Shown here: positions 7,854 through 64,000 of the stretch, piece after piece | Position numbering within the stretch: position 1 is the first letter of the stretch | How the letters are laid out: each line of letters begins with the position of its first letter | From: Octopus vulgaris | Taxonomy: Eukaryota | Length of the DNA: 64,000 nt | Assembly: GCA_951406725.2 (NCBI GenBank) | Contig: OX597827.1 | Location: forward strand, 44,082,001 to 44,146,000 | Direction of reading: 5' to 3' | Notes under the pieces: generated by a model | Seen by the model: only the letters and a program-made list of their open reading frames with translations | Told to the model about the DNA's origin: nothing | The model's database searches: none | Position numbers and translations under genes: made by a program

Positions 7854-7909
7854 AATTTGTCAAAATATTTTCGTCGCTTTGAGACCGCGACCTGTTCACT
7901 GACGAAATT
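7854..7909 (-). ncRNA. Minimal type I hammerhead ribozyme, G3-C8 core variant
   Basis: Minus strand: AATTTCGTCA GTGAACA G GTCGC ggtctcaaa GCGAC GAAA ATAT TT TGACAAATT. Stem I is 9 bp with one bulge, stem II is 5 bp, and stem III is the palindrome AATATT. Confidence 0.65.
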
Positions 7910-7924
7910 CCGTGCACACTGCAA

Positions 7925-8141
7925 TTGTTAGATATATATATTGTTAGATACATATATATATATATATATATATATATATATATATATATATATATATATA
8001 TATATATATATATATAATTTATTGTTAGATATATATATATATGATTTATTGTTAGATATATATATATATATATATATATAATTTATTGTTAGATATATAT
8101 ATATATGATTTATTGTTAGATATATATATATATATATATAT
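7925..8141. repeat. Minisatellite of ATTGTTAG+(AT)n units
   Basis: ATTGTTAGAT recurs about six times, separated by (AT)n of variable length. Confidence 0.85.
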
Positions 8142-9597
8142 AATTTCAGCAAAAATTTAGATAAATCTAAAAAACATACAAATAAAAGTAATACGAATAA
8201 TAACTCTCGTGGGATCAGTAATAATTCAACTAACCCTAAATCTAATTTAAGAAAATATAATAAAGAAAATATAATCTGGTTGAATGTTCCTTTCAACTAC
8301 GCGATCTTATCGGATATATACGGCAGATTCAAATATTAAATATAACCTAAAATGGGATATAGTTAGAAAGGCAGTACCTTATAGAAATAATAGGGTGAGT
8401 TGTCAACTCTGTTCCATGGAGACATATGAGATTGTAAAGCATAGAAAAAAGAAAAAATCTACTGAATAACCGTATAGAATTAGGTGTGTCTTGTATTCAC
8501 TCAAAAATCAAAACTCTACAATATTTTAAATAGAAATCTGTTGGTTCTCCCACTGGTGTTCTTTCTAACTATACCTTTTTAATATAAAAATAAATAGTAT
8601 TTGTACTATGCTAACTTTTAATTGACTCTATAGTCAATTTAATTAACCTTACTTAAATCATATAAATTGCTAATCTTTCTTAATTCTATTCTAAATTTAA
8701 TATGTAATACTATTCCCTTAATGATACATTTAATTTTCACTATAAATTTTGAATAAGTAAAATTCCCCAACAAATTGCTATTGAATTCATTTGACCTCTA
8801 GATGTCGACCTAAATTCTTTCTTACAATATATAAACATAAGTTAAAATAGAAACAATAATAAATAAATAACCTTCTATTCTAATGTTATCCTTAACTTTC
8901 TTACTGTATCTTCCTCTACTGATAACCTGTGACCCCTTTAGTGTTTTCCTTTGATCTCTCTGTATTCTTTATCCCACCATTAACTCTGTGAGCTTCTAAG
9001 TTCAGAGCTAGCCGTGGTCAAACTTACTCTTCTTTTATGAATTTAAGATTCCTTCAACACTGACCTAGATTTTCTGTCACCACAGAAATAGACTAACCTT
9101 TGTCTGTGGCATCTTTATTCCCTCTTACTCCCCCACTCCTTTCCTCCCATAAGGTCCTTTACTTTGGCTAAACCTACCTCGCTGTCTTTCTTGCTACTAT
9201 AAAATTCTATCTGCAACAGTTAGATGTGAACTGAACCGGTGTGTGACCAGTATCTTTCCTCATGTCTCCTGGAACTTATACCTGCATCTTTATGGATGGA
9301 TTTACCTTCTCTGAGAAGTTAATAATCATTTTGAAAACTTTTTTTAAAAAACTCTGCATTGTTGGAAAACATATAAAGTCTGCTTATAATCTTATTTCAA
9401 ATTCATAGAACTCACTCCTAATACTTCATAAGGATATTTACACTCTCTAGGATGTTTGGAAAACATATATGTGATTTAGCTGATGAATACTTGACATTAT
9501 ATTTGCTGTAATATTTGCAGCTTTAAATAAAATGTTCTTAGTATGAAACAATTATACTAAACTACTGATCCATTCTTGTTACTTTTTTCTTGGTTTT
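8142..9597 (+). mobile_element. Penelope-like element relic: linker, C-terminus, long 3' UTR/pLTR
   Basis: NKENIIWLNVPFN (WFNPPF-like), then after a deletion KYNLKWDIVRKAVPYRNNRVSCQLCSMETYEI...LNNRIELGVSCIHSK, ending near 8533. Both ends abut (TA)n. A hammerhead lies near the 3' end. Confidence 0.75.
9475..9561 (+). ncRNA. Type I hammerhead ribozyme motif in PLE 3' region
   Basis: TTTAG CTGATGA ATACT...AGTAT GAAA CAATTA TA CTAAA. Stem I and stem II are both perfect 5-bp helices. Stem III is one change from the palindrome CAATTG. Confidence 0.75.
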
Positions 9598-10507
9598 ATA
9601 TATATATATATATATATATATATATATATATATATATATATATATATATATACATATATACATATTGTTATGCATATGTGTGTATATATATATATATATA
9701 TTTATATATACATATAAGTGTGTGTTTGTATATGTGTGTATGCATACACACACACGCACGTGCATATCTGCAAATGTGCATATATATGTGTGCGTGTCTC
9801 ACTCTACGTGTGTGTGTGTGTATGCCAATGTTCATATACACTCATAAATACATATGCATTGATACGTTTATATATATATATATTTTCATTTATACACACA
9901 CACATAAAAACATGTATGTGTGTAAGTTATGTTTGCATGCATGCATGTATGCATGTATGCATGTATATATGTATATATGCATGTAAGTATGCATGCATGC
10001 ATGTACTTATTATGTATGTATGCATGCATGTAAATGTATGTATTATATATGTATGTATGAATATATGTATGTATGCATGTATGTATGTATACATGTATGT
10101 TATGTATTACCTTGTTTAGTGAACAATGGCGTTGCGATGTTGGTAAGAGGTTTCCAGCCGGTCAACCACTTGTTTTCATTGCATTTGTCACAGCGAGAAT
10201 GGCAAGGAAGCGTTTGTAAATCAAGGAGCATTGCTAGGAGGGCAGCGGGTTTTCACTCATCTTTACATCTGATGTGGACATAAAGTCATAGCACCGATAA
10301 CCTGTGGAGCCATTGTGCATTCTCATAGATTAAATCTCTCTCATAACTGATATAAAACTGTACGTCCATGAGCGTCTATCATCATATATGTGCGCGTGTG
10401 TGTATGAATGTTTGTGTGTGTGTGTGTGTGTGTGTGTGTGTCTATGTGTCTGTGTGTATGTGTATGTGTGTGTGTTTGAGTGTGTGGGGTGCTTGTGTGT
10501 GTGGTGG

Positions 10508-61328: not shown

Positions 61329-61844
61329 CATTCATATATACATACATATATATATAGTTATACACACATAAACACTGAGGCATTTGTATAAAGTTACTCA
61401 TCACATGAGGTTTAGACGCATATATATGCATATATATGTGTGTGCGTGTGTGTGTGTGTGTACGTGGGCGCGCGAATTTAAAAATATGCTCGTCTTACCT
61501 CTAGGAAGAACGCCCGAGAAATGGACAACCTAATACTCGAGCTTCGAACTTTTCAGAATACCTTTGTTATCGTAATACTGATTGGCGCTCGTCAGCTAGG
61601 TCCACCGAAAGGAACAAATTTATAATATCCGCTACATCAATACCTGCATATTCGACCCACAGTCTCAGCCGTAAACAGAATCTTTACGGTGCTTTATGTC
61701 GCTGGAAAATAATATTATTGTATTGTAATCATATATATATATATATATATGGCGTAATATTAATGTATTGCAACTATATATATATATATATATATATGGA
61801 AAAAAATCAAGATAAAAAATGCTAAAATAATTTTATAAAAAACA

Positions 61845-61886
61845 TTTCAGTACCGGTTTCAGTCATTGAGACTTTTTCAACTGTAA
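61845..61886 (-). ncRNA. Minimal hammerhead ribozyme, U3-A8 core variant
   Basis: Minus strand: TTACAG TTGAAAA AGTC tcaat GACT GAAA CCGG TA CTGAAA. Stem II is a perfect 4 bp, stem III is ACCGGT and the site is GUA. Confidence 0.65.
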
Positions 61887-62124
61887 GTATGGAAGACAAT
61901 TAAATTTTGGAAAAATTAAAAGAAAAGTTTTTTAAAAAGAATATTTGCATAGTGTTCAAATACAAGTGGCATTTTCCTTGTTTCTGCCTGTCTCTGTCTC
62001 TCTTGTTTACTCTTGTGGGTTCGAGGTCTTGTGGGTTCGACGCCATATATATATATGGCGTCCTTCCTAGAGATAAGACGAAAATATTTTATATTCGCCG
62101 CACGCACACATCTTTCTACGTTTT

Positions 62125-64000
62125 ATAGAAAAACAGAACACAAAAACAAGTGTATGGACAACAAGCAACTGTGTTAGTTTGACGCTCGGGAAAATGAAAA
62201 ATTTCATTTACATTTCGAGCCTACGCTCCTCAACAGAAAGGAATAGTAGAAAATAAATACAGAGAGATTGAAAAAAAACTTGTAGATTTCAGCGGCCCAG
62301 CATGGCGGATGATTGGGCGAAAAAGTTTGAAGGAAAGGGAGATAATAACAAAAAAGAGGTTGAAAGAAAGGGAGATAATGAAGTGCTGACGATCCCAAGA
62401 GAAGGTGTGCGTACGTGTGTGCGTGTCTGAGAATGGTGTGTGTGGGAGTGTAAGTGTGTGAGAGTATAAGTGTGTGTGTGGGAATAGGGGCGAGTGACTC
62501 TGACGTGTTTGAGAGTGTAAGCGTGTAAATGTGTGCGTGTGTAACGTCTGTGTTTTATGTGTAGCAGTTGAGGCGTGCTTTTTCACGTAGTGTATGCACA
62601 TGTGTGTATGTATGTCTGTGTGTCTGTGATCAGTGTGCTTGTGTGTGGTGTAGATATGTGGGTGAAAGTAATCTTTGTCTATGTATGTTGGCCTGTTGCG
62701 TGTGTATGTATATATAGCCTGTATTCAAGTACTATGTGCTTGTGTGGGTGTGGTATTATATATTGTCTATGTTCAGGCATTATGTGCTTGTGCGAGTGTG
62801 CATGATGGTGTGTGGTGTTAATACTGAGTTAAACAGTGTGTGTAGTTGCTCATATAGTGGTATGTGTGGTGACGCTATTGAAGATTGAGTGTGGGTGTGT
62901 GGATGAAGGTGTGTCGTGTGGATGCTGGGAAGGGATCAGTGCTAGTGTGTGGAGTGGTGTGGGTGGTATTAAATGAAGAGAGGAGGTGAGGTAGGTGTCA
63001 GATGAAGAGAGGAGGTGAGTTGAGCCCATGTGACGCAAAGGAGCGAAGAGAGAAGATTAATTCTTGTTCACAGCGAAGGCGGCCATCCGGATAGCACAAG
63101 TACAAAGACAGTCCGAACGCAGACAAATGTTGTAGCGAATGACTGGTAGAGCGGAAATAGCGCGAAACCGGAATGTCATTGCTTATGTCTCTGAAGTGCT
63201 CCGTGAACCGGCCAACCGAGTTGCGTCCCGTTTGACTGATGTACAGAAAAGGACAGAGAGAACAGGAGATCCAAGTAAATTACCTTACTAGAAGTGCAGA
63301 TAAAGGAGTCAGTGATATAATAGGGACAATGGTAGGTGCCTGTGAGGATGATGGTGTGGGAGAAGTAAGGGCAAGTGCGACAGCGTGAGCGGGAGCAGGG
63401 GAACGAGCCAGGCTGAGAGATGGGGTTAGGGAAGAAACTGTGGACCAGGAGGTTACACAGGTTATGAGCTCGTTTGAAAGAGATAAGGGGTAGGTTGTGG
63501 AAGCTGTACGAGATGGAGTGGCGGGTAGGAGTCGCCGGAAGTCTCTGATAATGGTGCATTGGAGTGGCAGGGTGGAAGGGTGGCAAGTTAGGGGAAACGG
63601 GAGACAAGCAACGGCGAGCGGTGTGCGAGAATAAAGAGCAGAGGCATGACCCAGAGATCATGCCCTGGTGAGGGGAGATCTACATAGGATGAAGTGATGA
63701 GTCATGAGTTAAGACTGAGTCTCAAAGTCATGGTTGTCACTGCAGAGCCTGCGCAGACTGAGGAATTGAAAATAGGGGATGGAGAGCTTGGGGTGGGTAG
63801 AGTGGGTGGAGGAGAAGTTGAAGTAGGAGTGTGAGCCAGTATGTTTGTAGTGGATGGAGGTAGTGAGAGCAGAATGGTGTATTCTGAAAGAAATGTCGAA
63901 AAATTTGACTGAAGTGTTAGAGATAGTGCAGGAGAATTCGAGGGCAGGATTGAAGGATTGGACAAAAGAGAATAAGGAGTCTAGTTGTTCGCGGGAGAGT
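62125..64000 (-). mobile_element. Penelope-like retroelement (RT thumb + Cys-rich linker + GIY-YIG), degenerate, runs off window end
   Basis: Minus strand: FVQSFNPALEFSCTIS..SVKFFDI...TSIHYKHTGSHSY...SIPYFQFLSLRRLCS, then CSRSRCRTCP...FICTSSKVIY/ISCSLC..LYISQTGR...RFTEH...EQELIFSL...HGLN. The stop is at 62998. Confidence 0.9.
62205..62240 (-). ncRNA. Degenerate minimal hammerhead in 3' region of PLE
   Basis: Minus strand: CTTT CTGTTGA G GAGC gtag GCTC GAAA TG TA AATG. It carries an A6U change. Confidence 0.45.

Follow-up and report, generated by a model that had tools for sequence, protein, structure and literature searches.

The 64-kb window, that is the whole stretch of Octopus vulgaris DNA analysed here, contains motifs that are very probably minimal type I hammerhead ribozymes in the pLTRs of about a dozen families of Penelope-like elements (PLEs), mostly as short, decaying and scattered copies; this appraisal covers the scheme of slow dimeric cleavage, copying and core variation outlined below. 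Family-fixed core variants among seemingly decayed motifs are the more interesting part. A swapped G3-C8 core is a natural, amplified family trait, which in print was found solely as an engineered partial-rescue mutant and for which cleavage is hypothetical.

Hammerhead motifs in the window

All twelve full and two half motifs listed in the original prediction are present where it had placed them. The features assigned are the following:

7715..7915, minus strand: family A solo pLTR (~200 bp) with short inverted 5′ piece and (TA)n flanks; 1,378 first-look candidates
7859..7903, minus: family A minimal type I hammerhead, swapped G3-C8; GTGAACA at 7899-7893
9475..9561, plus: family G hammerhead, C3-G8, 58-nt stem II region
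17264..17345, plus: family D hammerhead, C3-G8; one palindrome mismatch (family ACGCGT)
17815..17857, plus: family E hammerhead, C3-G8, palindrome ACTAGT; stem I decayed in the window copy
35186..35473, plus: GIY-YIG-like endonuclease remnant upstream of the family F ribozyme, assigned by motif
35775..35820, plus: family F hammerhead, palindrome ACCGGT, weak stem II
38660..38709, minus: family N 3′ half hammerhead, long stem II, palindrome ACATATGT; 5′ half lost
41107..41167, plus: family B hammerhead, intact, C3-G8; 11-nt palindrome with central unpaired A
41543..41605, minus: family J half motif, folded back, with the 3′ half fused to an inverted copy of itself
45279..45394, plus: family H hammerhead, decayed core, ~90-nt stem II region, palindrome ACAGCTGT
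47541..47628, minus: family M hammerhead, C3-G8, 57-nt stem II region; one palindrome mismatch (family ACGATCGT)
51052..51094, plus: family I hammerhead, C3-G8, imperfect palindrome; old family, 80-91% identity
53566..53601, plus: decayed family K-like copy, absent from the original list
61156..61206, minus: family J hammerhead, U4C core CCGATGA, palindrome ACAGCTGT
61235-61275: inverted twin of the family J motif 61156..61206, likewise not listed before
61848..61883, minus: family C hammerhead, U3-A8 core TTGAAAA, palindrome ACCGGT
62205..62240, minus: family K hammerhead, A6U core CTGTTGA; family palindrome ACGT, decayed in the window copy

The CTGANGA core that had been ascribed to these motifs occurs in six of the twelve full ones (9480, 17270, 17821, 41113, 47622 and 51056) and not in the other six. 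Four non-CTGANGA cores (7899 GTGAACA, 61202 CCGATGA, 61880 TTGAAAA, 62236 CTGTTGA) represent the majority of their family. Several copies had also been called decayed, which is correct for 35781 and 45282, whereas 7899, 61202, 61880 and 62236 carry family-wide variants.

The family A motif has a 5-bp stem II, the palindrome AATATT and U17 at 7863. One palindrome mismatch is found in the copy of family G (family ACAATTGT), which is young (95-99% identity). The family F core is U3-A8, and its window copy carries C3 with A8, a mismatch. The half motif near 41547(-) and the motif 61156(-) belong to one family (J), and family N has an intact relative at a locus elsewhere in the genome (L131). The 5′ half of family H is poorly resolved at the family level. 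All window copies are single or head-to-head and none is tandem; a same-strand tandem pair able to dimerise in cis was not found within the window.

Comparison with shuffled sequence and density in the genome

A strict descriptor (paired 3-8, U4, G5, A6, A9, GAAA, palindrome, H17 and stems of at least 3 bp) was applied to the window and to 60 local dinucleotide shuffles of it. The comparison with shuffled sequence, which had been proposed as a check, was in favour of the motifs: with a perfect palindrome three matches were obtained versus a mean of 0.08, and with one palindrome mismatch allowed five versus 0.28. The strict descriptor had no match in the reversed window. Allowing one core mismatch yielded four matches versus 0.90 (2 of 60 shuffles reached four), and allowing a stem I of 2 bp four versus 2.33 (12 of 60 shuffles). 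The decayed motifs therefore rest on family evidence, because the looser descriptors separate poorly from shuffles. The proposed Rfam search of the window gave no match at the gathering threshold, and no hammerhead was among the 150 listed of 724 E-value matches.

For an estimate of density 40 evenly placed 10 kb stretches of the genome (400 kb) were scanned. The strict descriptor gave 16 matches, about 1 per 25 kb, which extrapolates from this sample to ~110,000 intact motifs genome-wide; C3-G8 matches numbered 15, versus 1 across eight shuffles together. When remnants were included, using a library of the sample's own strict matches and the window's families, 45 places were found (about 1 per 9 kb) and none in three shuffles. 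The suggested frequency of roughly one motif per 5 kb applies to the window itself (1 per 4-5 kb), whose density is favoured by construction because the library included its own families.

Families and conservation of pairing

Genome searches with the 12 full motifs yielded 282-2,499 first-look candidates for each family, and the motifs in ~0.95 Mb of fetched DNA, a sample in which these families are enriched, form 28 clusters. MAFFT alignment across families was poor. As predicted, pairing and palindrome are usually kept: the relatives of a decayed window copy have mostly retained the pairing. The palindrome is restored in 10 of 14 relatives for family D (ACGCGT), 17 of 18 for family G (ACAATTGT), 6 of 7 for family M (ACGATCGT) and 7 of 10 for family K (ACGT), and U3 of the U3-A8 core of family F in 9 of 11. 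The literal core (C3 U4 G5 A6 N7 G8 A9...G12 A13 A14) is present in six of the twelve full motifs, and families A, C, F, J and K have fixed variants. In the families resolved at these positions, all but H, the majorities form a Watson-Crick 3-8 pair (C-G, U-A or G-C). Stem I closing the motif and stem II are present, the latter being weak in E, F and P, as are A15.1-U16.1, the palindromic stem III (imperfect in family I) and an H17 other than G.

Association with Penelope-like elements

GIY-YIG (± RT) remnants lie next to the motifs of three families (A, F and P), and the motifs are therefore regarded as minimal type I hammerheads of PLEs. Together with the 28 clusters these coding remnants bear out both the PLE link and the large, diverse ribozyme-bearing retroelement system that had been postulated. 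The long family A copies L209 and L210, which are 5′-truncated or inverted, contain an RT-like frame and, C-terminal to it, a GIY-YIG frame (PF01541 at E 0.002, which is below cut-off). Frames of the long copies reach Atlas values of 0.94-0.95 to eukaryotic clusters, in some of which 12-42% of members have RVT_1, and the family A RT gave no Pfam match and no PDB sequence match. A CX3CxxC linker and a CCHH pattern were read by eye against PMC8557442; by the description given there the linker suggests Neptune/Nematis. Family A furthermore shows two 3′ ends ~45 nt apart, 5′ inversions and (TA)n flanks, and its two 3′ ends and inversions match the PLE tail (30-40 bp) and inversions.

Endonuclease remnants were found for families F and P. 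The remnant upstream of the family F ribozyme has counterparts in 7 of 11 other family F loci; Pfam gave no GIY-YIG match for the window's two GIY-like frames (including 35186..35473). No coding remnants tied to families B, C, D, E, G, H, I, J, M and N were found, and a remnant near family K (63179-63424) recurs in no other K locus.

Variant cores

Five window families have a majority core other than CTGANGA, namely G3-C8 (A), U3-A8 (C and F), U4C (J) and A6U (K). The exact G3-C8 pattern of family A has 5,411 genome matches (control 0), which form two subfamilies with different loop II and the same core; one of them, A2, is young. In a search with free core, G3 and C8 occurred in 94 of the first 100 listed of 1,279 matches and C3-G8 in none listed. 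A sister with the same stems and the canonical C3-G8 has three copies. Family P (23 matches, control 1) is another, small family with G3-C8; its stems and palindromes differ from those of family A, and its stem II has only 1-2 bp. The A6U family K is the largest family found, with 11,912 genome matches and A6U in 94 of the first 100 listed; N7 can be A, C, G or U and the remaining core is constant.

Changes at positions 3 and 8 are always complementary at the family level (C-G, U-A, G-C); this pair belongs to the hammerhead active fold. A scan of the 400 kb with free 3-8 positions gave 6 mismatched matches versus ~6.9 matches of all classes per shuffle and thus no excess. A generic genome pattern with G3-C8 and a 6-nt ACNNGT stem also showed no excess (1,555, control 1,767) and therefore G3-C8 is not a broad class, whereas the generic C3-G8 pattern had 7,215 matches (control 3,130). 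It was the list of generic G3-C8 matches that led to family P. Loci L223 and L224 lack stem I and were rejected as a G3-C8 set; L217 has a G3-C8 core and the stem II of family A, but G17 and no clear stem I.

Cleavage and copying

Of 40 family A copies chosen by the sequence after the cut site alone, one ends at the cut site and 21 reach at least 50 nt upstream. Since the copies span the cut site, the copied RNA of family A was likely uncleaved, as expected from work on the PAc PLE ribozyme (Frangieh 2024, PMC11167929), in which uncleaved RNA is the insertion substrate, cleavage is protein-assisted and two RT start sites make the tail. RNA reads from a species carrying family A, which may not be the host species, covered both strands of family A evenly; no pile-up of starts or ends was seen in three raw runs and one contig set, which is uninformative on cleavage, and the differences listed included none at position 3 or 8. 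A search of sequencing runs for carriers of the family listed no RNA run.

The dimer-hammerhead modelled for family A has -21.6 kcal/mol, against -23.6 for two monomers and -31.5 for the free cofold, and is the least stable of the three. Dimers were also poor for families E, F and K. For B, C, D, J, M and N they came within ~2.5 kcal/mol of the free cofold and are competitive. Intact motifs are predicted to cut only slowly, as dimers that pair via their palindromic stem III, and a protein probably assists.

In the mechanism we propose, the RT/GIY-YIG protein of the element would copy RNA starting just upstream of the ribozyme and may also initiate internally ~130-190 nt further on. Internal initiation would result in solo pLTRs that have two 3′ ends and are frequently inverted on their 5′ side, often within (TA)n. 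Cleavage is probably both slow and unnecessary for copying, and for this reason variants keeping the 3-8 pair (U3-A8, G3-C8) or weakening the core (U4C, A6U) could be fixed and amplified.

Alternative explanations

Chance matches in AT-rich repetitive DNA would agree with the hits of loose descriptors in shuffles and with the lack of Rfam matches, but strict counts far above shuffles, thousands of genome matches versus none in reversed-pattern controls and the restored pairing within families refute this explanation, which retains practically no probability. Non-LTR retrozymes, the other option of the original prediction, are tandem, non-coding units that form circular RNA. A 359-bp tandem array with a canonical hammerhead does exist elsewhere in the genome (L290; five units in the fetched stretch, the compared pair 99% identical), and a derivation of retrozymes from PLE pLTRs has been proposed (bioRxiv 10.64898/2026.07.22.740005). 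The window, however, holds dispersed pLTR fragments of PLEs and no head-to-tail tandem units with hammerheads; its copies occur singly or head-to-head, ORF remnants are present in long copies, and the joints listed for family A included none of head-to-tail type. For the window the retrozyme reading is largely refuted and very improbable.

The variant cores (G3-C8, A6U, U4C) could also be catalytically dead, with the fold kept for protein binding or RT handling, or hitchhiking in non-autonomous masters. The apparently uncleaved family A templates, the A6U core of the largest family and the weak predicted dimers of A, F and K fit this idea, as do insertion in vitro unimpaired by catalytic mutants (PMC11167929) and the strong impairment of A6C in Mg2+ (PMC7151607). 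Against it stand the complementary changes at 3 and 8 within the active fold, the constancy of the family K core around a variable N7 and the lack of an excess of mismatched 3-8 pairs, and we consider dead cores rather unlikely. Tentative, and less likely than not, is the idea that these are the first natural active G3-C8 hammerheads. They would have been fixed from a C3-G8 ancestor with surviving sisters and amplified, in part in a recent wave, to more than 5,000 copies; their occurrence on two PLE lineages with barely alignable endonucleases would mean convergence or pLTR exchange. Together with the 12,000-copy A6U family this would point to selection for attenuated cleavage, uncut RNA being the transposition template.

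Relation to known hammerheads

Minimal hammerheads of PLEs have been known since 2014, with thousands of heterogeneous motifs per animal genome (Cervera and de la Peña 2014, PMC4209133). The octopus motifs share with them type I topology, short helix I, an extra nucleotide after A9 and palindromic stem III, as well as heterogeneous families with thousands of copies, most of them single, inverted pairs lying close together and the U3-A8 variant. They differ in that the palindromes, at up to 11 nt, and the stem II regions, at up to ~100 nt, are longer, and in the extrapolated number (~110,000 versus 2,000-9,000 per genome, with differing descriptors); G3-C8, A6U and cephalopod examples are absent from those parts of that paper compared here. 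Cleavage as dimers through a short palindromic stem III is a feature of small PLE hammerhead variants (Lunse, Weinberg and Breaker 2017, as cited in PMC6765202), and for octopus such dimers are predicted. Non-LTR retrozymes (PMC7229834; more than 6,000 copies in a coral and as many as 120,000 in axolotl) are likewise type I hammerheads of very high copy number, but are tandem non-coding repeats with canonical ribozymes, unlike the dispersed pLTR fragments of the window.

Among natural core variants U3-A8 and A6C (PMC3088659, PMC7151607) and U4C in the CYGANGA motif (PMC13481778) are on record. U3-A8 and U4C are thus already known in nature and shared with octopus, while G3-C8 and A6U are not listed in the portions of these papers considered. 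The same inverted 3-8 pair is known from PAc, where C3G/G8C partly rescues activity (PMC11167929, citing Martick and Scott 2006); that is a laboratory double mutant, and the octopus G3-C8 form, a natural amplified family trait, would by analogy be its natural equivalent. Within the open literature searched, which took in the Lunse 2017 survey only as cited elsewhere, G3-C8 was met in engineered uses only (PMC11167929, PMC3884650) and a cephalopod report of such hammerheads was not found; the consulted part of an octopus repeat annotation (PMC13282606) mentions neither hammerhead nor ribozyme.

PLE termini can be hidden among the short unclassified repeats of such genomes, and CUGANGA-based descriptors and Rfam overlook whole high-copy families. 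PLE hammerheads cleave poorly in vitro and were dispensable for insertion in the one reconstituted system. With a G3-C8 family, its canonical sister on the same stems and further families of the U3-A8, U4C and A6U types, a single genome provides matched natural pairs, which could tell whether catalysis or only the fold is selected. If the tentative reading of active G3-C8 hammerheads is true, the genome would represent a natural mutational scan of the hammerhead core.

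Hammerhead motifs and their repeat families

The assembly around the window comprises 2.80 Gb in 227 contigs, and the window itself (36.7% GC) is rich in microsatellites. All 14 motifs of the original prediction, including two half motifs, were located and assigned coordinates. A strict descriptor gave three matches with a perfect palindrome (mean of 0.08 in 60 local dinucleotide shuffles) and five with one palindrome mismatch (mean of 0.28). Under looser settings the counts overlapped those of the shuffles, and the remaining motifs were therefore assessed by repeat family. An Rfam search of the window gave no match at the gathering threshold, and none of the 150 E-value matches listed (of 724) is a hammerhead. 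The CUGANGA core attributed to the motifs is present in six of the 12 full motifs and absent from the other six. In genome searches, with 40 first-look candidates scored per full motif, each of the 12 retrieved a repeat family.

First-look candidates in the genome for each full motif (window position, family)
7899, family A: 1,378
9480, family G: 1,256
17270, family D: 841
17821, family E: 1,046
35781, family F: 1,118
41113, family B: 2,006
45279, family H: 282
47622, family M: 2,499
51056, family I: 982
61202, family J: 1,328
61880, family C: 606
62236, family K: 2,325

Half motif 41547 aligns with the family of 61202 (J), and half motif 38665 with an intact motif at a locus outside the window (L131). 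Pairs broken in window copies are retained by most relatives (10/14, 17/18, 6/7, 7/10 and 9/11), and the stem I pairing broken in the window copy of family E by 9/15; retention among relatives is independent of the descriptor and not built in by it. The reading of the motifs as parts of ribozyme-bearing retroelements is supported; all 12 full motifs lie in repeat families, and families A, F and P (a small family elsewhere in the genome) are linked to Penelope-like elements (PLEs).

Further features of the window
984-1431: minisatellite with 33-76 bp units, producing spurious CTGAGGA...GAAA minus-strand matches
13360-13794, minus strand: zf-RVT-like fragment (E 0.004)
42416-43249, plus strand: LINE RT fragment (RVT_1, E 4e-4)
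43337-43894, plus strand: mariner transposase fragment (PF01359, E 8e-25)
63179-63424, minus strand: remnant resembling GIY-YIG, located some 1 kb upstream of the motif of family K; no match in Pfam, absent from the other family K loci examined

Core variants

Family A carries the core GUGAACA, with G3-C8 in place of the canonical C3-G8 pair, and 464 exact 45-mers occur in the genome. With the core left free 1,279 matches were obtained; among the first 100 of these, counted by eye, 84 are exact, 94 carry G3 together with C8, and C3-G8 does not occur. Freeing loop II yielded 5,411 matches (control 0), which fall into two or more subfamilies; one of these is recent, given its near-identical copies. 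The family A stem II stands behind a canonical core three times in the genome. These copies are mutually related, two of the three keep the GTCA stem I arm, and by their sequence they have the appearance of an older sister of family A that keeps C3-G8; the swap is therefore likely a genuine case of two compensating changes.

Family P, also G3-C8 (23 matches, control 1), combines the palindrome ACCGGT (ACTAGT at locus L222) with a stem I that reaches 11 bp and a stem II of 1-2 bp. The family P endonuclease shares 56% identity with that of family F (U3-A8) and only about 25%, not significant, with that of family A. A generic G3-C8 pattern showed no genome-wide excess over control, so that the swap is restricted to a few families. 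Locus L217 combines a G3-C8 core and the family A stem II with a different loop, a different palindrome and G17, and is possibly a third G3-C8 lineage.

U3-A8 cores occur in families C and F. Among the first 100 of 1,936 family J matches, position 4 is C in 62, U in 36 and A in two; U4C is allowed in common descriptors (PMC13481778, available text). In family K, position 6 is U in 94 of the first 100 of 11,912 matches, and all four bases occur at position 7. Four copies in the L076 cluster have an A6C core, a known natural variant (PMC7151607, available text) for which a preference for Mn2+ is reported in a phage ribozyme.

Link to Penelope-like elements

Two long family A copies have about 870 bp in common upstream of the ribozyme, preceded in both by a GIY-YIG frame (PF01541, E 0.002, below cut-off); in L209, one of the two, a frame resembling an RT and an inserted mariner element are also present. 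Neighbours of the coding frames in the Atlas score 0.94-0.95, and in some of them a minority of the members carry RVT_1. A CX3CxxC linker and a CCHH pattern were recognized by eye against PMC8557442. A PDB sequence search with the RT-like frame gave no match. Coding support for family A is modest but consistent. Endonuclease remnants also lie upstream of the ribozyme in 7/11 other family F loci and in two family P loci (L278, L221). Moreover, copies of family A terminate at either of two 3′ ends some 45 nt apart, include copies inverted at the 5′ end and are flanked by (TA)n, all of which are PLE hallmarks (PMC8557442; PMC11167929, available text). A search of 1.5 kb flanks in the other families yielded no coding link, and their membership is based on ribozyme type. 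In family A a frame seen by eye stays open for about 30 codons, from about 60 nt past the cut site as far as the end of the element, and is possibly an ORF N-terminus as in PAc.

Copy ends and predicted cleavage

The 26 bases that follow the cut site were the sole criterion for choosing 40 family A copies (first 40 of 3,143 matches). One copy ends at the cut site, at a stem I microhomology join, 12 end within the ribozyme, and the others end upstream of the cut, at 37-49 nt (6/40), 50-62 nt (18/40) or beyond (3/40). Nine of the 12 (L243, L244, L256, L258, L259, L268, L272, L274, L276; 9/40 overall) have one common head-to-head fold-back junction, which indicates that the fold-back derivative was itself amplified. 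The copy ends suggest that the template would be an uncleaved RNA starting just 5′ of stem I, in line with the insertion system in the available text of PMC11167929, where the insertion substrate is uncleaved RNA, a protein is needed for cleavage and C3G/G8C restores part of the activity.

A branch-point/polypyrimidine/AG signal lies just upstream of stem I in five long family A copies (L020, L188, L229, L235, L236), exactly where the 5′ boundary of short copies usually falls. Of 16 short copies with AG there, eight have an extra G before this boundary, which would fit a candidate capped transcription start; the signal may represent a candidate intron acceptor, a candidate site of capped initiation, or the two combined.

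In modelling, the dimer-hammerhead is competitive in six families (B, C, D, J, M, N), intermediate in G, P and A2 (a young subfamily of A), and poor in the window copy of A and in E, F, K and P2; from these energetics cleavage is likely slow. The window contains no same-strand tandem pair of motifs, so its copies are likely inert. RNA reads from a species carrying family A covered the family on both strands without end pile-ups, which is neutral as to cleavage.

Genome-wide load and relation to known systems

Forty evenly spaced 10 kb stretches contained 16 strict motifs, which extrapolates to 112,000 in the genome (Poisson 64,000-182,000). BLAST with a library including the sample's own matches and the window's families counted 45 places, remnants included, in these stretches and none in three shuffles. 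A narrower descriptor gave 13 matches in paired-core classes vs. about 0.2 in 12 shuffles. Across all fetched DNA, a sample enriched for the window's families, 158 strict matches fall into 28 clusters. A tandem array at L290 (G000:C1:20002900-20004700) consists of 359-bp units (compared pair 99% identical). Every unit carries a canonical type I hammerhead with the palindrome ACCGGT, and two further, inverted units lie directly upstream; the array looks like a non-LTR retrozyme.

Published counts, made with other descriptors, are 2,000-9,000 motifs per genome in PMC4209133, while PMC7229834 gives >6,000 for a coral and as many as 120,000 retrozymes for axolotl (available text of both). The hammerhead load here is high and its kind is not new. 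The association with PLEs, the heterogeneity, the dimer model and U3-A8 already appear in the available parts of PMC4209133 and PMC3088659. The searched literature, its scope ending short of the largest survey of such variants, has G3-C8 as an engineered variant only (PMC11167929; PMC3884650, available text), and it holds no cephalopod hammerhead report, one supplement of PMC4209133 lying outside its scope. The present analysis documents the motif anatomy, the families, the core variants and the PLE link of A, F and P. The system is known; a high-copy natural core variant with a surviving canonical sister, as read from the genome sequence, is possibly unreported.
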